From Parcubacteria group bacterium Gr01-1014_29 (GTDB lineage: Bacteria > Patescibacteriota > Minisyncoccia > Ryanbacterales > 2-02-FULL-48-12), in the NCBI GenBank assembly GCA_007376195.1, contig VMFT01000003.1:1-57352 (forward strand): a stretch of DNA of 57,352 nt, read 5' to 3'. Below the pieces are notes generated by a model that saw only the letters and a list, made by a program, of their open reading frames with translations, was not told the origin of the DNA and did no database searches. Shown here one piece after another: positions 3,397 to 56,152 of the stretch; within the stretch, counting starts at the first letter, position 1; each line of letters begins with the position of its first letter. A program made the position numbers and the translations under genes.

Positions 3397-4191
3397 ATGG
3401 GTAAACATCTCGGTCAACATTTTCTTACTTCTCCGGTAATTGCGCGGCGGATTGTTGATGTTGCCAACATCCTGCCGAATGATATTGTTTTGGAGGTAGG
3501 CCCGGGGAAGGGGATGCTGACACAGTTTTTGGTTGAGAAGGCAAAATTAGTGATTGCTGTAGAGAAAGACAAGCAACTTGTTCAGTATCTCCGAGAAAAA
3601 TTTAAAGATACGAAAAATCTTAAAATCGTATATGGTGATATCCTTAAAATCCCCCTTAATCCCCCTTTTTCAAAGGGGGAACTCCTCCCTTTGAAAAAGG
3701 GAGGTTGGGAGGGATTTTTTGATTCAAATTTCAAGATTGTTGCCAACTTACCATACTACATTACTTCGCATTTCTTACGGTTATTTCTGGAAACAAATGA
3801 GCTTCGCCCGCAATCCATGACGCTGATGGTTCAAAAAGAGGTTGCAGAGCGAATATGCGCAAAACCGCCGCATATGAACATGCTTGCACTCTCGGTGCAA
3901 ACATTTGGAGTGCCGAAAATCATCTTCAAGGTATCAAAAAACAACTTCGCGCCGCCGCCAGAAGTAGATTCAGCAGTTATTGCGATAGAAAACATATCAG
4001 ACGTCTTTTTTAAAAAGCACAACATTTCGCCGCAACAATTCTTCAAGCTCCCTAAAAAAGCCTTTTCCCAAAAGCGTAAAATGCTCCGCTCCTCTCTCAA
4101 ACTGACTAGACACCGAGTGTCTAGTCAGTTTGAGATGATACGGCCGCAGGAGTTGTCGTTGGAGGATTGGGCTTTTTTATGTCCGGATTAA
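3397..4191 (+). CDS. rsmA: 16S rRNA (adenine1518/1519-N6)-dimethyltransferase RsmA/KsgA, carrying an in-frame repeat insertion and a rebuilt 3' end
   Basis: GQHFL start motif, SAM site VLEVGPGKGMLT, VANLPYYITS motif. Residues IPLNPPFSKGELLPLKKGGWEGFF are encoded by palindromic repeat family A. The last 30 codons contain palindrome D and a duplicated C-terminal segment. Confidence 0.9.
   Translation: MGKHLGQHFLTSPVIARRIVDVANILPNDIVLEVGPGKGMLTQFLVEKAKLVIAVEKDKQLVQYLREKFKDTKNLKIVYGDILKIPLNPPFSKGELLPLKKGGWEGFFDSNFKIVANLPYYITSHFLRLFLETNELRPQSMTLMVQKEVAERICAKPPHMNMLALSVQTFGVPKIIFKVSKNNFAPPPEVDSAVIAIENISDVFFKKHNISPQQFFKLPKKAFSQKRKMLRSSLKLTRHRVSSQFEMIRPQELSLEDWAFLCPD
3646..3718. repeat. Palindromic repeat family A, copy 1 (inside rsmA, translated in frame)
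   Basis: AAAATCCCCCTTAATCCCCCTTTTTCAAAGGGGGA..TCCCTTTGAAAAAGGGAGGTTGGGAGGGATTTT. The imperfect inverted arms are related to copies at 11899, 15934 and 33585. Confidence 0.85.
4098..4132. repeat. Palindrome family D copy 1 (16 bp stem, CGA loop), inside the rsmA 3' coding region
   Basis: CAAACTGACTAGACAC-CGA-GTGTCTAGTCAGTTTG. Near-identical copies lie at 5027-5059 and 28339-28373. Confidence 0.9.
4141..4174 (+). repeat. Direct repeat (left copy) flanking the toxin-antitoxin-like cassette; encodes the RsmA C-terminus RPQELSLEDWAF
   Basis: CGGCCGCAGGAGTTGTCGTTGGAGGATTGGGCTT versus 4976-5009 CGGCCGCAGGAGCTGGCGCTGGAGGATTGGGCTT (31/34 by eye). Confidence 0.85.
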
Positions 4192-4685
4192 AGTAATATA
4201 CTGCCTTTTAGCTCCCGCGCGCGATCAGAAAAAAAAGCTTTTAATTCTTCGATTGAAACCGGCTGTATCATGCGAGGCAAACCCGCTATGCGGCGCGCTT
4301 TATTAGCAGAAACATCCGAGAAGCTGTCAATATGCACTTCGTTTATAATCGTTGGCGCCTCAAGCTGTGGAAACGGATATTTTGTAAATTCAATTTTTAA
4401 TGCACCGAATTCACCAAGAAATTCAAACATATTTCTGTCATAAAGCCGTTGAAAATGAACCGTATGGGCTTTAAGATACTGTTTTAACCGCTCTCCAAAT
4501 TCATGAAGAAAAACAATATCAGGCGCCTCGGGCGTAAAAAAATCCAGATCATCAGAAAGACGATGATAAAGATAATAAGCCGCGAGCGCGGTGCCTCCGC
4601 TTAGATAATATGACGATAAGCGCTGTTCATGCGCTATAAATGAAATAGCCGCTTTTTGCGGGTCCGTTAAAATTTCTTGTTCCAT
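4188..4685 (-). CDS. Nucleotidyltransferase AbiEii/AbiGii-like toxin family protein (short form)
   Basis: GGTALAAYYLYHRLSDDLDFF matches the GGTAL..HR.S.DLDF signature of the DUF1814/AbiEii nucleotidyltransferase family. At 165 aa it is shorter than typical members. Confidence 0.65.
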   Translation of the reverse strand: MEQEILTDPQKAAISFIAHEQRLSSYYLSGGTALAAYYLYHRLSDDLDFFTPEAPDIVFLHEFGERLKQYLKAHTVHFQRLYDRNMFEFLGEFGALKIEFTKYPFPQLEAPTIINEVHIDSFSDVSANKARRIAGLPRMIQPVSIEELKAFFSDRARELKGSILL

Positions 4686-4909
4686 ACAAGTAACTCAAGA
4701 AATGCGCGGCGGTCTTCAGGAATATGAAGCTTAGGCAAGTAATCTTGCAATGTTTTCCTGTTAAGTTTCTGGTTCCCTAGTCCATAGAGAATAAGCCGTT
4801 CCAAGTGCCATACCGGATCAGCTTGTTGCTGTTTTTGATATTCTTCTGTTGGATAATCCCAATTATGCATAGTTACAGCATACCATGCATATGTTAGTTT
4901 TGAAAACAT
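4667..4909 (-). CDS. Hypothetical small protein, upstream partner of the AbiEii-like gene (possible antitoxin)
   Basis: Overlaps the downstream gene by 19 nt (operon-like). I can name no motif. The start may be the internal MHNWDYP. Confidence 0.4.
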   Translation of the reverse strand: MFSKLTYAWYAVTMHNWDYPTEEYQKQQQADPVWHLERLILYGLGNQKLNRKTLQDYLPKLHIPEDRRAFLELLVWNKKF

Positions 4910-4975
4910 ACTGTTTCCATGTCGTCAATGCGTATACATTCGGAAGTCCGACTTCCGAATGTGTTAGCGACAAAG

Positions 4976-5009
4976 CGGCCGCAGGAGCTGGCGCTGGAGG
5001 ATTGGGCTT
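4976..5009 (+). repeat. Direct repeat (right copy); relic of an RsmA C-terminus (KRPQELALEDWASVAK-stop)
   Basis: Same 34 nt as 4141-4174 with 3 mismatches. It is followed by a stop codon and palindrome D copy 2. Confidence 0.85.
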
Positions 5010-5026
5010 CTGTAGCCAAATAATAA

Positions 5027-5059
5027 CAACTGACTAGACACCGAGTGTCTAGTCAGTTG
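5027..5059. repeat. Palindrome family D copy 2
   Basis: CAACTGACTAGACAC-CGA-GTGTCTAGTCAGTTG. Confidence 0.9.
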
Positions 5060-11417: not shown

Positions 11418-11508
11418 GACGCACCTTTCAAGAAAAATATTCTCCGATGGCCTTGAAATAACAGAAAATTGTCGGCCATATAGAACATTTTTTCCTGAAA
11501 GGTGCGTC
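11418..11508. repeat. 91 nt hairpin repeat family B, copy 1
   Basis: It is the reverse complement of 43318-43408 with 6 mismatches by eye, 4 of which are compensatory pairs in the terminal stem. Confidence 0.85.
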
Positions 11509-11538
11509 AAAGGAGTATGTAACTTAAATAACTAACCC

Positions 11539-12645
11539 ATGGACGACACAACAAACAAACAACCAAATGAGATATTCGACCGCCTTGAAAAACTCCCTCC
11601 GGAGTTAAAGGACGTTATGTTTTCAACCGTTACGGCCGAAAAGATGTTTGATATCGGCAAGCGGCACGGCCTTCTGGTGGACAAACTGGGCGACATGGCG
11701 CACGAAACCGGGCTTTTGATGCTTGGCGTAACACACCCTGATGAATTTATCGGCAACCTTGCTTCCCGACTTGAAGTAAACACACAAAAAGCAAACGCGA
11801 TAGCCGACGACATAAACCGCGAAATCTTTGCTCCCGTACGCGAACAGTTACGCGCAGTGTTTGGGGGAACTGCTGGTCAGGGAGAAACACCAACTAATAA
11901 AATCCCTCCCGGCCTCCCTTTTCCAAAGGGAGGAGAGAAATCAATTCCCCTTGAGAAATTAACTCCCCCTTTGGAAAAGGGGGTTATGGGGGATTTGCAA
12001 GGTACTAGCACCAAACCTGAAACAACTTTAGAAGACCTTGAGGCCGAGCTGGAGCACGCTCTTGCCGGACAAGGAGGTGGACAACCATTGAGTGTGGTTA
12101 AAAAACCAGCCAATCTAGGTTACAAAGGCGCTGATCCCTATCGCGAACAAGTTGAGGAGCATATGCCAAATGTACGAGGCGCACCCTATGTGCCGAGCAA
12201 AGAACAAGTAGTAAGTAGTACGTATCAAGGGAAAGAAGAGCCCAAGCCGATCAAAGAAATATCAATAGCAACACCGACACCAAAGTCGGTCGAGGAGCCG
12301 TCCGTGTTTTCGCCTCTATCGCCAAAACCCGCAGAGTCTGCAACAAAAGAACACGACACTCAAAAGGCATCAGGCTTCAAATTTCAAAATTCAACCTCCA
12401 GCAAAAACGATGAAGATGTATTAAAAGAAATCACAGGTGACACAAAAAACGGGTCGCTCCAAGCATTTCGCGGATTTAATATGAATAATAACCGATCGGT
12501 TGAGAACCCGCCGCGCTATGGATTTTCGAAACTGCCTCCGTACAGGGAAAATCCTACTGCAAAACCAACACCGGCAGAGCCAGTGGGAATGCCACAACCC
12601 ATTACTAAAAACCAGAACGATTCATACAGGGAAAAAATTGAGTAG
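11539..12645 (+). CDS. Hypothetical low-complexity protein (T4SS-like locus) containing a translated family A repeat
   Basis: ORF of 368 aa. Residues KIPPGLPFPKGGEKSIPLEKLTPPLEKGVMGDL are encoded by repeat copy 11899-11996. The C-terminal half is Pro/Lys/Ser rich. Confidence 0.5.
   Translation: MDDTTNKQPNEIFDRLEKLPPELKDVMFSTVTAEKMFDIGKRHGLLVDKLGDMAHETGLLMLGVTHPDEFIGNLASRLEVNTQKANAIADDINREIFAPVREQLRAVFGGTAGQGETPTNKIPPGLPFPKGGEKSIPLEKLTPPLEKGVMGDLQGTSTKPETTLEDLEAELEHALAGQGGGQPLSVVKKPANLGYKGADPYREQVEEHMPNVRGAPYVPSKEQVVSSTYQGKEEPKPIKEISIATPTPKSVEEPSVFSPLSPKPAESATKEHDTQKASGFKFQNSTSSKNDEDVLKEITGDTKNGSLQAFRGFNMNNNRSVENPPRYGFSKLPPYRENPTAKPTPAEPVGMPQPITKNQNDSYREKIE
11899..11996. repeat. Palindromic repeat family A, copy 2 (long variant, translated in frame)
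   Basis: AAAATCCCTCCCGGCCTCCCTTTTCCAAAGGGAGGA..(28 nt)..CTCCCCCTTTGGAAAAGGGGGTTATGGGGGATTT. Confidence 0.85.
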
Positions 12646-14016: not shown

Positions 14017-14098
14017 TTAGGCTTTAGGCTCTAGGCTCTAGGTATTAGGAAATACACTTGAGACCTGAAGCCTAGCGCCTAAAAACTAGCGCCTAGCA
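14017..14098. repeat. Heptad-periodic inverted array (TTAGGCT x5 / CCTAGCG-type x5) filling the gap between the two VirB4 ORFs
   Basis: TTAGGCT TTAGGCT CTAGGCT CTAGGTA TTAGGAA - 12 nt - CCTGAAG CCTAGCG CCTAAAA ACTAGCG CCTAGCA, then CA ATG. Confidence 0.85.
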
Positions 14099-14099
14099 C

Positions 14100-15911
14100 A
14101 TGGCTTTCTTATCAAAACTATTTGGTAAAAAACAAGAAGATGGAGAAGGTATCCTTCCGATTTTTCCGCAAGATATTTACTCACACGGCGTTTTAGAACT
14201 GGAAGATGCCATCGCGCCCGCAGCGCTCCAGGTAAACCCATCAAACCTGCGCCTCGGAGAAAAATACACTCGTACACTGTATGTATACGCCTATCCGCGG
14301 TTTTTGGCGACAAGCTGGTTTGCGCCTATCATCAATCTCGATAAAGTGTTTGATATCTCAATTTATATTCATCCGGTTGACACAGCCCTAATTCTGCGCG
14401 ATCTTCGCAAGAAAGTTGCCGAGGTACAATCGCAGATTTCCATACGTGAAGAAAAAGGCCTCGTGCGCGATCCAGTGCTTGATACTGCTTACCAGGATCT
14501 TGAGGCTCTGCGCGACAAACTCCAACAGGCGCAGGAAAAACTCTTTAGCATTGGGCTGTACATCACGCTCTACGGAGACACAGAAAAAGAGCTTACAGAA
14601 ATCGAGACAGAAGTACGTTCTATTCTTGAAGCAAAACTAATCTACGCGAAGCCCGCGCTCTTCCAGCAGCGGGAAGGATTTACCAGCACCCTGCCGCTTC
14701 TGCTTGATAAGCTGGAAGTGCATACCTACATGAACTCGTCCCCGCTTTCAAGTGTGTTTCCGTTTGTATCATTTGACCTCACCTCAAACCGCGGCATACT
14801 CTATGGCATTAATCGCCACAACAACAGCCTTATTTTATTCGACCGCTTTACGCTCGAAAACTACAACACGGTTGTTTTCGCAAAAGCGGGCGCGGGCAAG
14901 TCGTATATGACAAAACTCGAAATCCTGCGTTCGCTTATGTTTGATACTGATGTAATTGTAATAGATCCGGAACGGGAATATGAGTATCTGGCCGAAACCG
15001 TTGGCGGCAGATTCTTTAATATTTCCATCAACTCACACCATCATTTAAATCCCTTTGATCTTCCTTTGCCGCACGAGGATGAGTCGCCCACGGACGTGCT
15101 GCGCTCAAATATCATCAATCTTATTGGCCTCTTCCGGTTGATACTCGGCGGACTCACGCCCGAAGAAGATTCCATCATGGACCGTGCCATTACCGAAGCG
15201 TACGCCGCAAAAGACATTACAGCAGAGGCAGATTTTACGCATATCTCCCCCCCCCTGCTTTCAGACCTGGAGCTGGTGCTCGCGAACATGCAGGGTGGCG
15301 AGACACTGGCATTGCGCCTTAGAAAATACACCGAAGGCACGTGGTCGGGGTTTCTGAACCAACCGACAAATATAAACATCGACAAGCACATGGTGGTATT
15401 CTCGCTGCGCGATATGGAAGAGGAACTTCGTCCCATTGGCATGTATATTGTTACGCATTATATCTGGAATGTTGTGCGGTCTGAACTCAAAAAGCGCATC
15501 CTTATAGTTGATGAGGCCTGGTGGCTGATGAAATCGGAAGATGGCGCATCGTTTCTTTTTGGTCTTACCAAACGCGCCCGCAAATATTTCTTAGGTGTTA
15601 CCACTATTACGCAAGATATCGGCGACTTTATGAACTCGCCCTACGGCAAGCCGATTATCACCAACTCGTCTATTCAGGTACTGTTGAAGCAATCTCCCGC
15701 CACAATTGATATAATGAAAGATGTGTTTAACCTCACCGACGAAGAAAAGTTTCTGCTTTTGGAGTCCGACGTGGGGGAGGGAATTTTCTTCGCGGGGTTG
15801 AAACACGTGGCCATAAAAGTTATCGCCTCCTACACCGAAGACCAGATTATTACATCCGACCCCGAGCAATTATTGGCGATTAAACGGGCGAAAGAAGAAT
15901 TTACACAGTAA
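14100..15911 (+). CDS. virB4: VirB4/TraC-type T4SS ATPase (CagE_TrbE_VirB-like domain + AAA_10-type ATPase)
   Basis: Walker A FAKAGAGKSYMTK, Walker B ILIVDEAWWLM, and YTRTLYVYAYPRFL plus DISIYIHPVD motifs typical of VirB4 middle domains. Confidence 0.85.
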   Translation: MAFLSKLFGKKQEDGEGILPIFPQDIYSHGVLELEDAIAPAALQVNPSNLRLGEKYTRTLYVYAYPRFLATSWFAPIINLDKVFDISIYIHPVDTALILRDLRKKVAEVQSQISIREEKGLVRDPVLDTAYQDLEALRDKLQQAQEKLFSIGLYITLYGDTEKELTEIETEVRSILEAKLIYAKPALFQQREGFTSTLPLLLDKLEVHTYMNSSPLSSVFPFVSFDLTSNRGILYGINRHNNSLILFDRFTLENYNTVVFAKAGAGKSYMTKLEILRSLMFDTDVIVIDPEREYEYLAETVGGRFFNISINSHHHLNPFDLPLPHEDESPTDVLRSNIINLIGLFRLILGGLTPEEDSIMDRAITEAYAAKDITAEADFTHISPPLLSDLELVLANMQGGETLALRLRKYTEGTWSGFLNQPTNINIDKHMVVFSLRDMEEELRPIGMYIVTHYIWNVVRSELKKRILIVDEAWWLMKSEDGASFLFGLTKRARKYFLGVTTITQDIGDFMNSPYGKPIITNSSIQVLLKQSPATIDIMKDVFNLTDEEKFLLLESDVGEGIFFAGLKHVAIKVIASYTEDQIITSDPEQLLAIKRAKEEFTQ

Positions 15912-16029
15912 TACTTTGAATTACGAAACTCCTAAAAATCCCCCTTCATCCCCCTTTTCCAAAGGGGGACATGCGCTCCTCCCTTTGGAAAAGGGAGGTT
16001 GGGAGGGATTTTGTAATTCAAAGAGTAAT
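15908..16029. mobile_element. MITE-like composite: 21 nt terminal inverted repeats enclosing a family A palindrome (copy 3, 15934-16012)
   Basis: Left TIR is GTAATACTTTGAATTACGAAA; its TAA is the virB4 stop. Right TIR is TTTTGTAATTCAAAGAGTAAT, ending 4 nt before the next ATG. The same TIR type bounds 43287-43452. Confidence 0.7.
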
Positions 16030-19323: not shown

Positions 19324-19417
19324 GCATTAGGCGCTAGGCTGTAGGCACTAGGAGTTAGAATTTAGAGAAAGAAAATTTTTTCTAAAGCCTAATGCCTAGT
19401 TTTCCTAGAGCCTAAAC
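19321..19417. repeat. Heptad-periodic inverted array (TAGGCNN x7 / CCTANNN x4) between convergent genes
   Basis: TAGGCAT TAGGCGC TAGGCTG TAGGCAC TAGGAGT TAGAATT TAGAGAA ... CCTAATG CCTAGTT .. CCTAGAG CCTAAAC. The first TAG is the stop of 18127..19323, and a CTA in the last units is the stop of jag. Confidence 0.85.
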
Positions 19418-28338: not shown

Positions 28339-28373
28339 CCAACTGACTAGACACTCGGTGTCTAGTCACTTGG
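28339..28373. repeat. Palindrome family D copy 3, immediately downstream of ruvC
   Basis: CCAACTGACTAGACAC-TCG-GTGTCTAGTCACTTGG. The loop is inverted relative to copies 1 and 2, so orientation relative to the upstream gene is the same. Confidence 0.9.
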
Positions 28374-33570: not shown

Positions 33571-33697
33571 TACTTTGAATTACGAAATCCCTCCCCCGCC
33601 CGCCTTGCTTCGCAACGCGAAGCGGGCAGGCAACCTCCCTTTTCCAAAGGGGGATGAAGGGGGATTTTTAGTGTCAGACATTCTCGTAAATCTTAAA
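33571..33697. repeat. TIR-like module + family A palindrome copy 4 (33585-33669) with a central GC hairpin
   Basis: TACTTTGAATTACGAAA, then AAATCCCTCCCCCGCCCGCC..GCTTCGC-AAC-GCGAAGC..CCTCCCTTTTCCAAAGGGGGATGAAGGGGGATTTTT. It is flanked by TCTGACA / TGTCAGA. A degenerate right end overlaps the stop of 33693..34571. Confidence 0.7.
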
Positions 33698-43290: not shown

Positions 43291-43452
43291 TTACTTTGAG
43301 TTACGAAATAATCCTTTTACGTACCTTTCAGGAAAAAATGTTCTATATGGCCGACAATTTTCTGCTATTTCAAGGCCATCGGAGAACATTTTTCTTGAAA
43401 GGTACGTAGGCATGCTTATAATACTACTTGTTTCGTAATTCACGGTAATTAC
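43287..43452. mobile_element. MITE-like composite: 22 nt TIRs enclosing hairpin family B copy 2 (43318-43408)
   Basis: Left TIR is GTAATTACTTTGAGTTACGAAA and right TIR is TTTCGTAATTCACGGTAATTAC. The TAA inside each outer GTAATTAC is the stop codon of holA (plus) and rpsT (minus) respectively. Confidence 0.75.
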
Positions 43453-43783: not shown

Positions 43784-43874
43784 ATGATGAATTATGAATC
43801 AAGAATTATGAATTATGGGAAAAAAATACAAGGAAATTTCTTTGCATGATTCTTAATTCATACTTCATAATTCA
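43784..43874. repeat. Heptad-periodic inverted array (ATGAATT-type / TAATTCA-type) between uvrB and rpsT
   Basis: ATGAATT ATGAATC AAGAATT ATGAATT ATGGGAA ... TGATTCT TAATTCA TACTTCA TAATTCA. The last five codons and the stop of uvrB lie in the right arm. Confidence 0.8.
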
Positions 43875-46788: not shown

Positions 46789-46862
46789 AGCCGTAGAGTA
46801 ACATATAAATGTTAGAATAACAACCGACTGGCTTTTTTATTTTCTTGCTACCTATTATACTA

Positions 46863-46897
46863 CCTAATGCCTAGAGCCTAATATCTAGCGCCTAACA
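46863..46897. repeat. Heptad-periodic array CCTAATG CCTAGAG CCTAATA TCTAGCG CCTAACA ending 1 nt before the ruvA ATG
   Basis: Read directly. The unit type matches the right arms at 14064-14098 and 19388-19417. Confidence 0.8.
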
Positions 46898-46898
46898 A

Positions 46899-47480
46899 AT
46901 GATTTCCTTACTTGAAGGCACCATTGAGTTCAATGGCGAACGGTTCGCTGTTATTAACGCGGGCGGGGTTGGCTATAAAGTGTTTTTTGCTCCGGAGACC
47001 ATGCGCAGTGTAGCCAAGATCGGCGAGCGCCACAAGGTCTGGACGCATCTTCACGTGCGCGAAAACGACATGGAGCTCTATGGATTTTTATCATACGCCG
47101 AGATGCAGTTTTTTGAAGTGCTCATAGGTGTCTCTGGTGTCGGTCCCAAATCGGCTCTTGGAATTTTGGGTGTTGCCCCGCTCGATATGTTAAAACGCGC
47201 TATAGCCGCGGGCGAGATGAACTATCTGACAAAAGTTTCAGGCATTGGGAAACGTATGGCGGAAAAAATTATTGTGGAACTCCGCGACAAACTTGGGGGC
47301 GCGCAAATGTCCGAAGGCGTTCGCGCCGAACTTACTGCCGATACGGATGTGCTTGATGCGCTGATTTCCATGGGGTATTCACAGCGCGAGGCGCGTGAAG
47401 CCGTAAGCCGCGTGCCTGCCGGTATATCGGGAACAAAAGAGCGCCTTAGTGAGGCGCTGAAAGGGTTGGGGAAAAGATAA
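46899..47480 (+). CDS. ruvA: Holliday junction DNA helicase RuvA
   Basis: MISLLEGTI start, OB fold, HhH motifs (GVSGVGPKSALGIL; VSGIGKRMAEKII), and C-terminal domain III. Confidence 0.92.
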   Translation: MISLLEGTIEFNGERFAVINAGGVGYKVFFAPETMRSVAKIGERHKVWTHLHVRENDMELYGFLSYAEMQFFEVLIGVSGVGPKSALGILGVAPLDMLKRAIAAGEMNYLTKVSGIGKRMAEKIIVELRDKLGGAQMSEGVRAELTADTDVLDALISMGYSQREAREAVSRVPAGISGTKERLSEALKGLGKR

Positions 47481-51586: not shown

Positions 51587-54500
51587 ATGCTTAAAAATAA
51601 GGTCTATTATAATTTTATGTATCATATAAATCACATGAAAAAGTTTGCAAAGTACGTTTTCCTTGCCGCGGGCATTGCGGCATTTATAATGGTCGTAGCA
51701 CTAAATGTAGGCACTCCTTCAGTTGCCCAAGCCGCGGCGGCATGGCAACCACTGACAGTAGATGGCAAATTCCAGACGGCTATTCACGTGGTTCCGCCTA
51801 CTGATGAAAATCCTTTGCATGCGACTATCTACGGGATTGGCACCGATAACAGTATTAGCAACGGAAATGCGGTTAAAAAATGGAGGAACACCGGAGCTAC
51901 GATAGATCAAGGCGCGTCTGAGACATTCTCCACATCAGGAAATTATAAAGGGAGCTTAGTTCTTGCCAAAGATGGATCCTACACTCGTCCCGGTTTTATC
52001 ACGGGTGTAAATAAGTACTTTTACAGCATCGGTCTTGATAACAGCGTCTATCGGTGGCGCGATGGACAGGGATTTGATCTCTATGCGCCTAATGGATCGC
52101 TGAAAAAGATATATATGCCTGATGATAATACTATTTACGGCATCGGTTATAATGAAGATTTTATTTGGAAATGGACACCGGCAGGGGGATGGAAGAGAAT
52201 TACGAACGGCCCCGTAAAGGATAGTTTTCATGTTATTTCTGAAAACGATATCTACGCGATTGGTTTAGATAACCAAATTTATCGCTGGACTGGCACGCCG
52301 TTTTATCAAGGTACGGGAGGAAGTTTTGCGAAAGTGAACCCAGACACACATCCGTTTTCACTTAAACATAAAATTCATTACGCAAATGGAAACATATACG
52401 GCATCGGGTTAGACAATAGGATTTGGAAATGGGATACCTCAAAAAATAATACTCCCTCTGCTGCTTCCTCTCCCGTCACTGACTGCTGCATTAAAGACGA
52501 TTTCCACTTTATCTCGGAGAACGATATCTATGGGATTGGATTAGATAACAATGTTTGGCATTGGAGCGGGACAGGTGGAGGCGAGGTAGGATTATATTCC
52601 GGATTTTATAATTTCCCGGTAAGATTTTTTAACGAGTCAGTTGTACCACGTGAGCAAATGACAAAAGTTACTGACGCCCAGTATGTAAGTCTTAAGAAAA
52701 TGCATAATAGTAATGCACCCTATGTATTTACTAGAATTGAGTATGGTCCCTCCGTATATGGAGCAACTATGCCTAATGGAATCAAATTGGGTGACGCCGC
52801 CTTTCCAGGACTAAATGGTGGTCACCCACGTTGGGAGGTTATGGCGCATGAGCAAGGGCATAATTTTTTTGGCGGCACGAGTCCGTGGTATAACACACTC
52901 GCAGTACCAGGGCCTTTTTTGCAGGAGAGCTTAGCTGTCTTGAGTGCCTTCTATACATATCATAATATTATTGAGAATTTACCGGCCTTTAATATCACTA
53001 GTGGAACGGCTAGTAGTCTAAATTATGATTTTACCAGTGGAAGAAATTATCAAAGAAGTCAACATGATCTTTACATCTCACAGGGCAAAAATTTTGACGA
53101 CCAAGTTACTTTGACCAGTCAGGCGCTTGATTACAAAATGATAGTCTATGGAGAAACATACGGTTGGCAGAATTATACGAAATTAACTAAAGCATTTGAG
53201 AGCGGAGTTGCAAGTCAGTTTACGTTTCAAAACGATGGCGTCTCCGCCACCGAAAGAAGCACCTATATTGTTGCGGCTCTCGGGGCTACATTCAATAGAG
53301 ATTTTAGAAATGAATTTCTCGCGTTGAACTTCCCGGTAGACAATACTCTTTATAATGAAATCTATAATAAATTGGTAGTTGTTATGGGGGGCTACACGCT
53401 CAATGTCACTAAATCAGGAACCGGTAGCGGAACCGTAATCTTTCCCGTGGGCATCAATTGCGGATCGGATTGCTTCGAAAGCTACGCAGCCGGTGCCCCT
53501 GTCACGCTCACCGCGCAAGCCACAGCCGGCTCAACCTTTACCGGATGGAGCGGGGATTGTTCGAGTGTCAATTTGGTTACCGGAACCTGCCAGCTCACTA
53601 TGAGCGCGGCAAAGAGTGTGAAGGCGACATTCGATCTCACAGGAGGCACCCCACCTCCCGCTCCTTGGGCTGAAGTTCCGGGGAGTGGATTGACCCTTGA
53701 TAGCCCTGCCGCACTTTGGTATTCGAATAGAAATGAAGGAAGTTTGTTTGTTAGAGGAACTGACGATTTGGTCTATGTTAATCATTCCTCTGGAGGCAAC
53801 TTCATTTCCTGGAATTCCCTCCCTGATAAAAAAACCTTAAGCCAGCCCGGAGTGGTAGTGGATAGTGACGGCATCAGACATATTTTTATACAAGGAAAAG
53901 ACGACAATAAGATTTATACTTTGGGTTCCAGTGGAACATGGATTGAGGTCCCGGGAGGAGGATCAACCCCAAGCGGCCCGGAAGCCGTACGGGAAGGAAC
54001 TAAAATTCATCTCTTTATTCGCGGAACAAACGATAAGGTGTATATGAATACTAGAGATAATGATTCCTGGCAGAACGAATGGACCGAAATTCCCGGAGGT
54101 AAACTTATTGCAAGCAGTCCTTCCGCGGTGGTGACTTCCAACCAGCTTAACGTCTTTGTTAGAGGCACTGATGATAAAATTTATCTAAATACCAAGAGTG
54201 CCAACGACTGGGAAGGATGGAGCGAGCTGAAAAGTGGGGGATCAACTTTAAGTCAACCGACTGTCGTCGTAGCTGGAACAGGTGTAAAAGTCTATGTGCG
54301 CGGCACCGATAACAAAGTCTATTCTACATCAGGCATAATTAGCAGTACTAATAAATCATTCACTGAATGGAGTGTTGTGTCTCCGGATGCGGCAGTAACC
54401 GGAAGCGGGCCCGAAACAATCGTGGATGCTTCAGGCAATATCCTTATTTTTATTCGCGGGTTGAATAATAAGATTTACAGGCAAACAATCGCGGTGGGAG

Positions 54501-56152
54501 GAGCCTTCGCCCCCTCCCTTATATATTCAAAAATCATTAATGGTCCAAGCGAACCAAACTTTAACGTTAATGAAGATATTCATGGAAAAGCGGAAAATGC
54601 TGGACCAAATAGCAAGTTGTGTTCTCAAGTCCTAGTGCACCCCACCCTTAATTGCGGAGGGTCTGGTCAACCGGCTTGCGCAGACGCATGTGCTGGCGAT
54701 CCCTTGGCTTCCGTTGGCACGAATCCTCCTTGGAAGAGAATGATTGATTTGGTGCAATGGAATGGTACGGATTCTAGCCGAGGTAACACAGGATATAGCA
54801 CAAACTCATGGCGCGGACTTACAAAAGCGGCAGATTTTTACCCTTCTATTGTTGCTCCCGGGCTAAAGCTTAAAATTCATCTCTATGATCCAGACCAACC
54901 GGTAGTTGCAAACAGAAGGACTAGCGCTGATGTTGAATACAAAATCGGAGGCACCACCGGCGGCAGTCTTACCACTCAATATAGTTCTTCTGCCGCGAAT
55001 GTCCCGCCTGGTTTTGCGGTGCCGTTTAATCTTTTTACTCCGGCGAAAGAGCTTCTGGTAGGCGGTTCTCGTTCTTCCACGGGCATTACCGCAACGGCGG
55101 GCGCGTCTACACAGGATCCCGTGACCTATGTCTATCACAAGGGATACATATTGCGTAATAATCAATGGCAACAGATTACTTTTACTTCTTCCGGCACGCC
55201 GCTTATTTCTAACTTCTGGTATGCGGGCACTGTCCAAGCTTCTATTCCTCTTACATCCGCAGAACTTTCTCAAAGTATCCATGTTATTGCCTATACATGC
55301 GCATATGTAAACGGCCAATGGAAATGCGGGTGTAAAGATGCGGCCTGTGCTACGAATTATTGGCAGCTACAGACGTTTCGTCCGACGGGTGGCGGAGGCG
55401 GTGGCGGAGGTGGTGGTGGAGGTGGTAATGCCACTCTCCGCATCGCTCCTTCAGAGATAAATTCATACTATAGGTGGGCGACGTCAGGCGGTTCTTATGA
55501 AGAAGCTTCCTACACATACGCGCTTTACGATCCCGACGGGTCTGGGCCACAACCAGAGCGAAAGTTGTTTAATAGTGAAGTCGTCTGGACGCCAGGAGAC
55601 CCGCACCTAAATCTACCGAATCAGCCAGTACGTCCAGGCGAATGGCTAGCGTATGCTGGTACTCTTCAGAGCGGTAATTTAGTAGTAGAAAATCAACAAC
55701 CGTATACGACAACTATCACCGCTAATGCCAAAGGCCTCACCGCCAGCATTGACTTTAAAATGAATGTTGGCCGCAGGCCGGGTAGCGAACGCGCCTGGTT
55801 CTGGGTGTCTTCCCCGGGAAAACTTTTTAGCGGATTGCCGTATGTTCCTTATGATAACGACGCCCCAGTCGGCTCTAGAGATGCCCACTTCGAAATGACC
55901 GTGAAGGTAGGAGAAACGAAGACATATCCAATTAACGTAGCCACTGGTTTCGGGGATAATCTAGAGCCACTTTCAGGGATAACCAATCTACTAGGGTTAA
56001 ACTTCGTATGCAACTACGCAGGATCCGGAAGTATCAGTTGCGATGACCGATACGGAATAACGGGCGTTGTGCCGGGGATAACCTACATCCAACACCCCGG
56101 GACTCTTAGTGACAGCGCTTTATCACTCACCAGAGTTACGGTAACCCAATAA
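51587..56152 (+). CDS. Giant secreted multidomain protein: tectonin-like propeller, HExxH metallopeptidase-like module, InlB B-repeat-like domain, DUF346/PLL-like propeller, large Cys-containing C-terminal region
   Basis: Signal/anchor MKKFAKYVFLAAGIAAFIMVVAL. Six IYGIGLDN.IW.W-type repeats (about 51740-52610). HEQGH at 52847-52861. GTGSGTV..GINCGSDC..TGWSGDC module (about 53393-53637). Six F[VI]RGTDDK[IV]Y-type repeats (about 53668-54490). Gly13 linker at 55388-55426. The start could be 51635. Confidence 0.8.
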   Translation: MLKNKVYYNFMYHINHMKKFAKYVFLAAGIAAFIMVVALNVGTPSVAQAAAAWQPLTVDGKFQTAIHVVPPTDENPLHATIYGIGTDNSISNGNAVKKWRNTGATIDQGASETFSTSGNYKGSLVLAKDGSYTRPGFITGVNKYFYSIGLDNSVYRWRDGQGFDLYAPNGSLKKIYMPDDNTIYGIGYNEDFIWKWTPAGGWKRITNGPVKDSFHVISENDIYAIGLDNQIYRWTGTPFYQGTGGSFAKVNPDTHPFSLKHKIHYANGNIYGIGLDNRIWKWDTSKNNTPSAASSPVTDCCIKDDFHFISENDIYGIGLDNNVWHWSGTGGGEVGLYSGFYNFPVRFFNESVVPREQMTKVTDAQYVSLKKMHNSNAPYVFTRIEYGPSVYGATMPNGIKLGDAAFPGLNGGHPRWEVMAHEQGHNFFGGTSPWYNTLAVPGPFLQESLAVLSAFYTYHNIIENLPAFNITSGTASSLNYDFTSGRNYQRSQHDLYISQGKNFDDQVTLTSQALDYKMIVYGETYGWQNYTKLTKAFESGVASQFTFQNDGVSATERSTYIVAALGATFNRDFRNEFLALNFPVDNTLYNEIYNKLVVVMGGYTLNVTKSGTGSGTVIFPVGINCGSDCFESYAAGAPVTLTAQATAGSTFTGWSGDCSSVNLVTGTCQLTMSAAKSVKATFDLTGGTPPPAPWAEVPGSGLTLDSPAALWYSNRNEGSLFVRGTDDLVYVNHSSGGNFISWNSLPDKKTLSQPGVVVDSDGIRHIFIQGKDDNKIYTLGSSGTWIEVPGGGSTPSGPEAVREGTKIHLFIRGTNDKVYMNTRDNDSWQNEWTEIPGGKLIASSPSAVVTSNQLNVFVRGTDDKIYLNTKSANDWEGWSELKSGGSTLSQPTVVVAGTGVKVYVRGTDNKVYSTSGIISSTNKSFTEWSVVSPDAAVTGSGPETIVDASGNILIFIRGLNNKIYRQTIAVGGAFAPSLIYSKIINGPSEPNFNVNEDIHGKAENAGPNSKLCSQVLVHPTLNCGGSGQPACADACAGDPLASVGTNPPWKRMIDLVQWNGTDSSRGNTGYSTNSWRGLTKAADFYPSIVAPGLKLKIHLYDPDQPVVANRRTSADVEYKIGGTTGGSLTTQYSSSAANVPPGFAVPFNLFTPAKELLVGGSRSSTGITATAGASTQDPVTYVYHKGYILRNNQWQQITFTSSGTPLISNFWYAGTVQASIPLTSAELSQSIHVIAYTCAYVNGQWKCGCKDAACATNYWQLQTFRPTGGGGGGGGGGGGGNATLRIAPSEINSYYRWATSGGSYEEASYTYALYDPDGSGPQPERKLFNSEVVWTPGDPHLNLPNQPVRPGEWLAYAGTLQSGNLVVENQQPYTTTITANAKGLTASIDFKMNVGRRPGSERAWFWVSSPGKLFSGLPYVPYDNDAPVGSRDAHFEMTVKVGETKTYPINVATGFGDNLEPLSGITNLLGLNFVCNYAGSGSISCDDRYGITGVVPGITYIQHPGTLSDSALSLTRVTVTQ

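Follow-up and report, generated by a model that had tools for sequence, protein, structure and literature searches.

The rsmA gene of Parcubacteria group bacterium Gr01-1014_29 carries a palindrome within its reading frame, and the same palindrome recurs elsewhere on the contig. This raises the question of what the element is, how it came to lie inside a coding sequence and why it has been kept there. We analysed a 57,352-nt stretch of contig VMFT01000003.1 (hereafter the window) together with the rsmA loci of relatives and matching sequences from other phyla. The explanation that we consider probable is that a horizontally spread pair of triplex motifs, here called family A, was inserted into a loop of rsmA and that its arms were then held constant.

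A palindrome in frame in rsmA

The features on which the analysis rests are the following.

3397..4191, + strand: rsmA/ksgA host gene, 264 amino acids (aa), with the catalytic, S-adenosylmethionine (SAM)-binding and NLPY motifs intact
3646..3718, + strand: family-A copy 1, a 73-nt two-unit imperfect palindrome in frame in rsmA, encoding KIPLNPPFSKGELLPLKKGGWEGFF (residues 84-108)
3648..3681, − strand: left unit of copy 1, of class-II triplex type, (T)TCCCCCTTT-gaa-AAAGGGGGA-tta-AGGGGGATT (formal scan, ITxF-like criteria)
3684..3716, + strand: right unit of copy 1, CCTCCCTTT-gaa-AAAGGGAGG-ttg-GGAGGGATT (formal scan, ITxF-like criteria)

The open reading frame (ORF) at 3397-4191 was identified as RsmA/KsgA by its matches to the Pfam family RrnaAD (2e-51) and to TIGR00755 ksgA (210 bits, cutoff 171), and also by alignment to solved KsgA structures. 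The names of its relatives placed the window in the Patescibacteria/Parcubacteria. The initial annotation had named rsmA as an essential methyltransferase gene; the identity held, but "essential" was an overstatement and is not apt here, because rsmA belongs to a set of ribosome-biogenesis factors with lower conservation in the candidate phyla radiation (CPR) (PMC12641178).

Copy 1 has the sequence AAAATCCCCCTTAATCCCCCTTTTTCAAAGGGGGA-ACTC-CTCCCTTTGAAAAAGGGAGGTTGGGAGGGATTTT, and its two 32-nt arms (3646-3677 and 3687-3718) are 84% complementary. The imperfect palindrome was thus where the initial annotation had put it, with a length of 73 nt rather than about 72. Its predicted RNA fold has an energy of −48.7 kcal/mol (z = −5.4), which was not equalled by any of 200 dinucleotide shuffles; the folding was done with ViennaRNA, which models duplex pairing only. 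The strong hairpin is flanked by an A-tract and a T-tract. The element is in codon register, and KIPLNPPFSKGELLPLKKGGWEGFF is placed between GDIL (motif III) and KIVANLPYY (motif IV), so that the earlier description of an unbroken frame between the SAM-binding region and the NLPY motif was borne out. Two of the six reading frames of copy 1 are open, one of which coincides with the rsmA frame, and the insert would accordingly be read as part of RsmA, as a peptide of about 25 residues rich in Pro, Gly and Lys. A gathering-threshold Rfam scan of the window returned one tRNA and nothing else, and in a permissive Rfam scan the element drew nothing but noise of the generic long-hairpin (miRNA precursor) kind, far under threshold. 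Family A was not flagged by a terminator scan, and searches of Pfam and NCBIfam with the element peptide produced no matches.

Orthologue comparison bears on whether the segment was inserted or is ancestral. In a set of 118 Parcubacteria RsmA proteins, 115 are without the family-A peptide, and outside the window it was found only in the closest relatives, P0002 and P0003. The loop between motifs III and IV has a median length of 14 aa and a mode of 12 aa in the same set, compared to 29 aa in the window, and when 31 close orthologues were aligned, RsmA varied most in the segment from DIL to KIVANLPYY. Because 115 of 118 orthologues are without the peptide and the loop is 29 aa against a median of 14, the rsmA copy reads as an insertion and not as ancestral coding sequence, in agreement with what had been proposed before this alignment was made. 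An AlphaFold2 model of RsmA built from the orthologue alignment (mean predicted local distance difference test score (pLDDT) 87.6, predicted template modelling score (pTM) 0.86) matched solved KsgA crystal and cryo-EM structures in Foldseek with template modelling (TM) scores of 0.76-0.81. Only two stretches of the model, residues ~85-105 (family A) and ~225-250, were of low confidence. The model predicts that the family-A segment is a flexible surface-loop excursion that leaves the KsgA core fold unchanged, which fits the surface loop that had been expected.

Triplex-motif units, related repeats and host range

Family A is present four times in the 57 kb of the window, in frame in genes twice and between genes twice, and for a 35-nt half with up to three mismatches 0.00 chance occurrences were expected. 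The other copies and the second host gene are as follows.

11899..11996, − strand: family-A copy 2, with a 28-nt central insert, in frame in a variable linker of ORF 11539-12645
11539..12645, + strand: host gene of copy 2, a conserved gene in a cluster resembling a type IV secretion system, without a Pfam match
15935..16012, + strand: family-A copy 3, intergenic, with 93-94% identity to copy 1
33585..33669, − strand: family-A copy 4, intergenic, with one unit intact (33635-33666)

The second in-frame copy and both intergenic copies (15935-16012 and 33585-33669) had been noted initially, and all three are real. Copies 1 and 2 share the same element-relative frame (3646-3397 = 249 and 11899-11539 = 360, both divisible by 3). 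The peptide of copy 2, KIPPGLPFPKGGE, is read as NKIPPGLPFPKGGE...PPLEKGVMGD, and the DNA of this copy folds with z = −4.05. The N-terminal ~110 aa of its host are nearly invariant in comparison with the syntenic orthologues in L121 and L206, and the copy-2 peptide is absent from both. Copy 3 folds as DNA at −34 kcal/mol (z = −6.9). In copy 4 the inner hairpin of the second unit has been swapped for a GC-rich hairpin.

Each unit is about 33 nt long: one 3-nt loop separates a pyrimidine arm from a purine arm, and a second 3-nt loop separates the purine arm from a mirror of itself. The 73-nt element is made of two such units, mutually inverted. The right unit of copy 1 follows a 9-3-9-3-9 layout, with 9-nt stems and no mismatches in either the Watson-Crick or the third-strand register. 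The window was scanned under ITxF-type criteria, which call for pyrimidine-purine-purine order, stems 8-15 nt long that contain no more than one mismatch, and loops of 1-6 nt. All seven intact units were recovered (stems 8-10 nt, loops 1-6 nt), and their third block is in mirror register with the second, so that it could lie antiparallel to it in G.G-C, A.A-T and T.A-T triads. Stem-9 motifs numbered 10 in the window, compared to none in five shuffles.

Covariation was followed in 249 units from fetched loci. The hairpin arms occurred in compensatory pairs, namely CCCCC/GGGGG in 197 units, CTCCC/GGGAG in 18, CCCTC/GAGGG in 15 and CCTCC/GGAGG in 4. Among units with an asymmetric purine arm, the third segment was a mirror of the second in 26 cases and a direct copy in 1; the mirror variants are of four types (GAGGGG to GGGGAG, GGGAGA to AGAGGG, GGAGGG to GGGAGG and GGGAGG to GGAGGG). 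The mirror relation is not needed for duplex pairing, either within a unit or between paired units, and it is the register required by an antiparallel purine-motif third strand. Judged by sequence, the window family is another sequence family of the intrastrand triplex motif, or PIT/BoxC, class. That it belongs to a published class, and that it is not specific to its lineage, had both been missed by the initial annotation.

In the published members of this class a C-rich stem is followed by two G-rich segments, each of the three being 9 nt long, with a first loop of 3-6 nt and a second of 3 nt between them (PMC4666352), and the TM_ECO family counts 3610 copies in 262 proteobacterial genomes (PMC4666352). 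Family A has the same unit layout, geometry and mirror register as TM_ECO/PIT/BoxC (Hoyne et al. 2000; Holder et al. 2015). Like TM_ECO, it occurs as single units or inverted pairs, is highly conserved and over-represented, has no associated transposase and is linked to local instability with partial deletions that retain the hairpin; TM_ECO itself forms occasional inverted "palindromic" pairs and has been linked to local sequence instability (PMC4666352). The differences lie in sequence, range and position. The arms of the window family are CCCCCTTT/AAAGGGGG/GGGGGATT, compared to CCCTCNCCC/GGGNGAGGG in TM_ECO, and owing to these arms it departs from the TM_ECO/BoxC consensus CCCTCNCCC-N3-6-GGGNGAGGG-N3-GGGNGAGGG. 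A blastn search of 5,426 E. coli genomes gave no family-A match, so the window family is not the BoxC sequence family. Its host range extends far past the Proteobacteria and includes plasmids and viral contigs. In E. coli, TM_ECO is "always located intergenically" and is reportedly not tied to mobile elements (PMC4666352), whereas family A breaks the strictly intergenic rule, with two of four window copies in frame and further in-gene copies in other phyla.

Three other kinds of repeat invite comparison. Rickettsia palindromic elements (RPEs; Ogata et al. 2000) are Rickettsia-specific, 105-146 bp long and fused in frame to proteins (PMC2229807), and some carry a CGTC tag (PMC3733652); small in-gene palindromes are also documented well outside Rickettsia (PMC3733652, PMC2229807). 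Family A resembles RPEs as a long stem-loop palindrome found both between genes and in frame in conserved enzymes, at permissive surface sites, where the host protein apparently still functions. It differs from them in length (73 nt compared to 105-146 bp), in its two triplex-type units, in its presence in many phyla and in its Parcubacteria host, and its sequence is unrelated as judged by peptide profiles, not by direct alignment to RPE DNA. NCBIfam, in which the element peptide has no match, presumably includes the TIGRFAM RPE domain models.

Repetitive extragenic palindromic (REP) sequences and REPINs are defined by an unpaired GTAG or CGTC tetranucleotide at the hairpin end (PMC3733652). 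In common with REPs, bacterial interspersed mosaic elements (BIMEs) and REPINs (PMC3733652, PMC3116915), family A has hairpin units of 20-40 nt, inverted dimers that are often heterodimers, and two arrangements; REPs are also mostly extragenic, with documented intragenic copies. However, no GTAG or CGTC tag was present at the ends of eight aligned family-A copies, family A has an extra mirror-repeat third arm, and no REP-associated tyrosine transposase (RAYT) gene adjoined any copy in neighbourhoods of ~8 kb. REP families are also usually species- or genus-specific, whereas family A is nearly identical across phyla. MITEs (short for miniature inverted-repeat transposable elements), such as the 107-bp form of Correia, ERIC and YPAL (PMC2229807), are likewise small, non-autonomous open-frame repeats fused into protein genes. 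Family A is shorter than typical MITEs (about 100-200 bp), and no target-site duplication flanked the eight aligned copies, some flanks being inverted complements. It also has no related insertion sequence, though no search aimed at a parent element with its termini was made. In behaviour the element is comparable to RPEs, to REPs inside genes and to MITEs fused in frame, yet it is a member of none of these groups.

An exact-match scan for the half-unit, whose counts are lower bounds (at least 118 stretches), found the pattern in >118 stretches from many phyla. Matches in the Gamma-, Beta- and Deltaproteobacteria included isolates and one complete chromosome, with the genera Lysobacter, Luteimonas, Pseudoxanthomonas, Iodobacter, Thiothrix and Methylotuvimicrobium among them, and further matches came from Nitrospirota, Chloroflexota, Acidobacteriota, Omnitrophota and others. 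Seven Acinetobacter plasmids carry family A between genes, in both pair arrangements, and 34 IMG/VR stretches carry it as well. The heterodimer of the rsmA type, which pairs a C5/G5 unit with a CCTCCC/GGGAGG unit, recurs in a Thermodesulfobacteriota metagenome-assembled genome (MAG), two proteobacterial MAGs and a closed Acinetobacter plasmid. When eight heterodimer copies were aligned, 51 columns were invariant and the variation was confined to loops, spacers and the centre. There were no family-A units in the loci L121, L203, L206 and L210, nor in 844 kb of other Patescibacteria rsmA loci, which came from a GTDB genome scan (best RsmA match 53% identical) and serve as a negative control only. 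Because it is near-identical across phyla and patchy among close relatives, family A probably spreads horizontally. Mis-binning may affect some of the MAG contigs, but it cannot account for the closed plasmid, the complete chromosome or the long contigs. Literature searches for the DNA core and the peptide signatures returned no papers, and no description of such repeats in Patescibacteria was found, in line with the initial annotation, which knew of none for this lineage.

A link between family A and a Y1 transposase was considered and, on the ~8-kb neighbourhoods covered, rejected: the hairpin next to the Y1 genes of L121 and L207 is unrelated to family A, and none of these genes is near a family-A unit. 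The two genes (L121 9363-10052 and L207 1205-1894) encode a 229-aa Y1 transposase of IS200/RAYT type and lie between a UvrD/PcrA helicase gene and rsmA, with the hairpin GCGTCTTGCGATGACGC on both sides in direct orientation; in the window only 11 nt separate the helicase gene from rsmA. By tblastn there was no Y1 homologue in any unit-bearing locus, the search covering only the ~8-kb neighbourhoods and not whole genomes. The unit was also seen inside longer tandem repeats with near-identical flanks, with periods of ~275 nt in a Nitrospirales chromosome (L023 5214-6281), 168 nt in a Pseudoxanthomonas isolate (L104 670-1038) and 228 nt in a Lysobacter isolate (L116 969-1911).

Conservation of the rsmA copy and turnover at its site

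The same element is present in rsmA of the window, of L119 (P0002, from JGI) and of L120 (P0003, from ENA), with junctions identical to the base and in the same orientation. As junctions and orientation are common to all three, the sequences point to one orthologous, old insertion event. A scan of JGI metagenomes for the exact rsmA junction gave no match, in a collection that does not include L119. Between the window and L119 the element is 92% identical in nucleotides and 96% at third positions, compared to 72% and 50%, respectively, for the rsmA core. The core is 76% identical in amino acids and is for that reason under ordinary purifying selection. In a sliding window the conserved island spanned 3637-3725, and all differences between the window and L119 fell in hairpin loops, spacers or the centre (a 6-nt indel), with none in the stems. 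Since the stems are invariant (96% third-position identity) while the gene stands at 50%, the arms are maintained at the nucleic-acid level. The behavioural analogy with selfish Rickettsia-type repeats drawn by the initial annotation is therefore fair, but to call this element merely tolerated is too weak when its stems are invariant.

The L120 copy is decaying. Its identity is 75%, and its peptide is only 56% identical and is rearranged; a GC-rich hairpin is nested in the loop of one inner hairpin and the other inner hairpin has been replaced, with reading frame and foldback both retained. The length differences among orthologues are all multiples of three, and the frame was kept through 6- and 30-nt indels, a pattern loosely consistent with translation.

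In sister alleles this codon position is occupied by unrelated inserts.

L121 and L210: a different palindrome, TGTCAT.CC...GGAATGACA
L203 and L204: hairpins of opposed TTGAAAC/GTTTCAA heptamers
L205 and L206: plain tandem heptamers, with short loops and no hairpin
L207: a GC mini-hairpin

L203 and L210 are 99.2% identical upstream of the loop and 82.8% downstream, and L120 and L210 are 94.9% identical downstream; the inserts of L120, L203 and L210 are mutually unrelated. The rsmA alleles thus look mosaic around the loop. Copy 1 is flanked by remnants of heptamers, CTTAAAA ... ATTCAAATTTCAAG, and these match the hairpin arms of L203. Copy 3 is nested at the apex of an outer 11-bp hairpin formed by CTTTGAATTAC (15914-15924) and GTAATTCAAAG (16013-16023), in L120 and copy 4 the apical loops of family-A hairpins contain GC hairpins, and copy 2 holds its 28-nt insert at the centre. 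We infer that elements target hairpin apexes and that structural instability is the cause of the hotspot. By analogy, the turnover of the loop would fit the instability described around TM_ECO, including deletions that retain the hairpin.

The small nested GC-rich hairpins have loops of UUCG type (GGATCCGCCTTCGGCGG) and were seen in the apical loops of larger hairpins at L120 628-660, in the rsmA loop of L207 and at 33596-33633 of the window. Kindred peptide traces, DPPSAEK, DPPLADK, KPPSGGF and NPPVGGQ, are found in the RsmA loop of P0045, P0052 and P0086.

Our explanation runs as follows. A non-autonomous, horizontally spreading triplex-motif pair would have entered the part of rsmA that encodes the loop between motifs III and IV, in an ancestor of the window's Parcubacteria lineage, probably at the apex of an older heptamer-repeat hairpin. 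One open frame of the element would have matched the rsmA frame, and the gene survived. The insert would be read through as about 25 residues that form a flexible surface excursion, with the methyltransferase core unaltered. The arms have since been kept fixed at the nucleic-acid level, either by constraint in situ or by gene conversion from other copies, with loops and spacers left to drift and the element decaying in one relative (L120). Such structure-prone DNA would lead to rapid turnover and recombination at this codon position.

The strongest alternative, which we judge unlikely, is that the foldback is a nucleic-acid element selected in place, acting in transcription or translation pausing, in mRNA stability or as a hotspot of rsmA variation. 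It draws on the invariant stems of orthologous copies in a host gene whose synonymous sites are near saturation, on the many Parcubacteria that have a hairpin or repeat at exactly this codon position, and on the placement of a strong hairpin between an A-tract and a T-tract. However, the L120 copy decays, L203, L206 and L210 have an intact gene without the element, and the short-loop orthologues L205 and L206 are entirely hairpin-free. Family A is moreover scattered over unrelated genes and intergenic sites, and in E. coli neither promoter nor terminator activity was seen for PIT motifs (as cited in PMC4666352).

The chances are smaller still that the window, L119 and L120 record three independent site-specific insertions rather than one ancestral event. 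The window and L119 elements are 92% alike between flanks that are 72% alike, at a site that gains different elements repeatedly and where hairpin-apex positions hint at structural targeting. Yet all three share base-identical junctions and the same orientation, their loops, spacers and centre have diverged roughly like the flanks, and the degraded L120 copy implies age. A protein-level innovation, in which the loop gives RsmA a new function such as contact with the unusual CPR ribosome, is hard to credit: the frame was kept in three lineages across 6- and 30-nt indels, but conservation tracks the nucleic-acid stems and not the residues (the L120 peptide is rearranged and only 56% identical), AlphaFold2 assigns the segment no structure, and the same peptide motif is found in unrelated proteins. 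That there is no real insertion, only ancestral low-complexity coding sequence or an assembly artefact, has a negligible chance, as repeats can mis-assemble in metagenomes but the insertion is present in three independent assemblies (window, JGI L119 and ENA L120), the ORF is intact within a 57-kb window and 115 of 118 orthologues are without the peptide.

Several points weigh against the insertion of a horizontally spread triplex-motif pair with maintained arms. Triplex here is a property of the sequence only, and the TM_ECO triplex was formed in vitro and went undetected in vivo (Holder et al. 2015; PMC4666352). The mirror relation comes from four variant types, and the copies of each are not independent of one another. 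For family A, neither a transposase nor a target-site duplication nor a pair of empty and filled sites was found, so its mobility is read from distribution only. The stem invariance might stem from a function in situ and not from selfish maintenance. That the insert is translated is a prediction from the sequence. The close orthologues were retrieved as intact proteins, a procedure that would miss disrupted alleles, and the mosaic alleles come from short-read metagenome contigs in which strain chimeras are possible.

In-frame copies in other phyla, neighbouring repeats and significance

Outside the CPR, 37% of the units lay in open stretches of at least 150 codons, compared to 83% for random positions. 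The stop-to-stop census behind these figures over-calls coding in GC-rich genomes; it was used as a depletion signal and followed by Pfam checks. Among the longest spanning ORFs, these checks bore out genuine in-gene copies. In an AcrB-family transporter (Pfam match over residues 1-1055), a two-unit element occupies the cytoplasmic linker between transmembrane segments TM6 and TM7, and homology to solved resistance-nodulation-division (RND) pumps ends at ~503 and restarts at 552, flanking the element. A unit also lies in the DPBB-SPOR linker of an RlpA-like protein and between the haem-binding domains of a multihaem cytochrome. On four viral contigs from IMG/VR (L213, L234, L230 and L216), Mu-like portal proteins carry single units in frame in their C-terminal tails. 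The portal tails of L213 and L234 have nearly the same peptide, RFAKSPLAPLFQRGEDY, as do the spanning ORFs of L211 and L219, for which no Pfam check was made.

In two-unit elements one to three of the six frames are open, without a consistent pattern, and for this reason in-frame survival looks like a filter and not an adaptation. Selection for coding competence was also considered and is unsupported by the open-frame counts. A protein-database search with the doubled peptide gave 16 candidates, all of them short ORFs on repeat copies; it missed RsmA, so it is no census.

The 3′ end of rsmA carries further features.

4100..4130, + strand: family-B palindrome in rsmA, AACTGACTAGACAC-CGA-GTGTCTAGTCAGTT, in frame as KLTRHRVSSQF
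4940..5026, + strand: stranded ancestral rsmA C-terminus, SEVRLPNVLATKRPQELALEDWASVAK followed by two stops (from translation and comparison with orthologue C-termini)

Two unrelated palindromes, of families A and B, thus lie inside one rsmA gene. Family B has 14-bp arms and three copies in the window (4100-4130, 5028-5058 and 28341-28371). The copy at 4100-4130 is in the variable linker ahead of the last helix, where the pLDDT falls to ~64, and the copy at 5027-5059 was flagged by the terminator scan as terminator-like on the − strand. At 4131-5026 a two-gene cassette has been inserted on the − strand, with a gene for an AbiEii-like nucleotidyltransferase (4188-4685) and an 80-aa ORF (4667-4909), and rsmA now ends with a replacement C-terminus, MIRPQELSLEDWAFLCPD and a stop. 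Family-B palindromes bracket the cassette, one before the replacement C-terminus (4100-4130) and one after the stranded remnant (5028-5058).

Other repeats were observed in the window. A third family is an element of ~100 nt, a long imperfect palindrome (ACGCACCTTTCAAGAAAAA...TTTTTTCCTGAAAGGTGCGT) whose two copies, at 11419-11518 and 43308-43407, are intergenic, in opposite orientations and 94% complementary. Tandem-heptamer hairpins or arrays of the TTAGGCT and TGAATTA types lie at 14017-14111, 19327-19358, 46858-46910 and 43788-43874, and the heptamers in the rsmA loops of L203-L206 are TTGAAAC/GTTTCAA, TTTTCAA and GTTACGA. Heptamer repeats of this clade are found between genes and inside coding sequence, as "FKFQ" peptides in RsmA and ORF 11539-12645. 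A 1521-aa ORF at 51587-56152 has several internal repeat families.

In-frame behaviour and the repeat class were each already known. What is new is the combination of the two, together with the three-way covariation, the near-identity across phyla and the rsmA hotspot. Intrastrand triplex-motif repeats, first described 25 years ago, are abundant and had been regarded as intergenic. Covariation of both hairpin arms and the mirror arm argues that the three-arm architecture itself is maintained, and the argument for horizontal mobility is the near-identity of copies in CPR, Desulfobacterota, Proteobacteria, plasmids and phage contigs. Where copies lie in frame in conserved genes, orthologues can be compared against synonymous sites, and this comparison shows constancy of the arms at the level of DNA or RNA. 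For the CPR, with their very compact genomes, the findings describe colonisation of coding sequence by repeats, as well as a mosaic and hypervariable site within a gene for ribosome biogenesis. A broader and tentative proposal, which we regard as possible but would not favour, is that the pyrimidine-purine-purine units form one pan-bacterial mobile family whose triplex-capable three-arm form is selected as a recognition or integration intermediate, and which inserts at hairpin apexes, including those in coding sequence, with the rsmA loop as a recurrent landing pad. If this were true, the rsmA loop would be a place that swaps structured elements and recombines alleles, and the palindrome in it would be no one-off tolerated accident.

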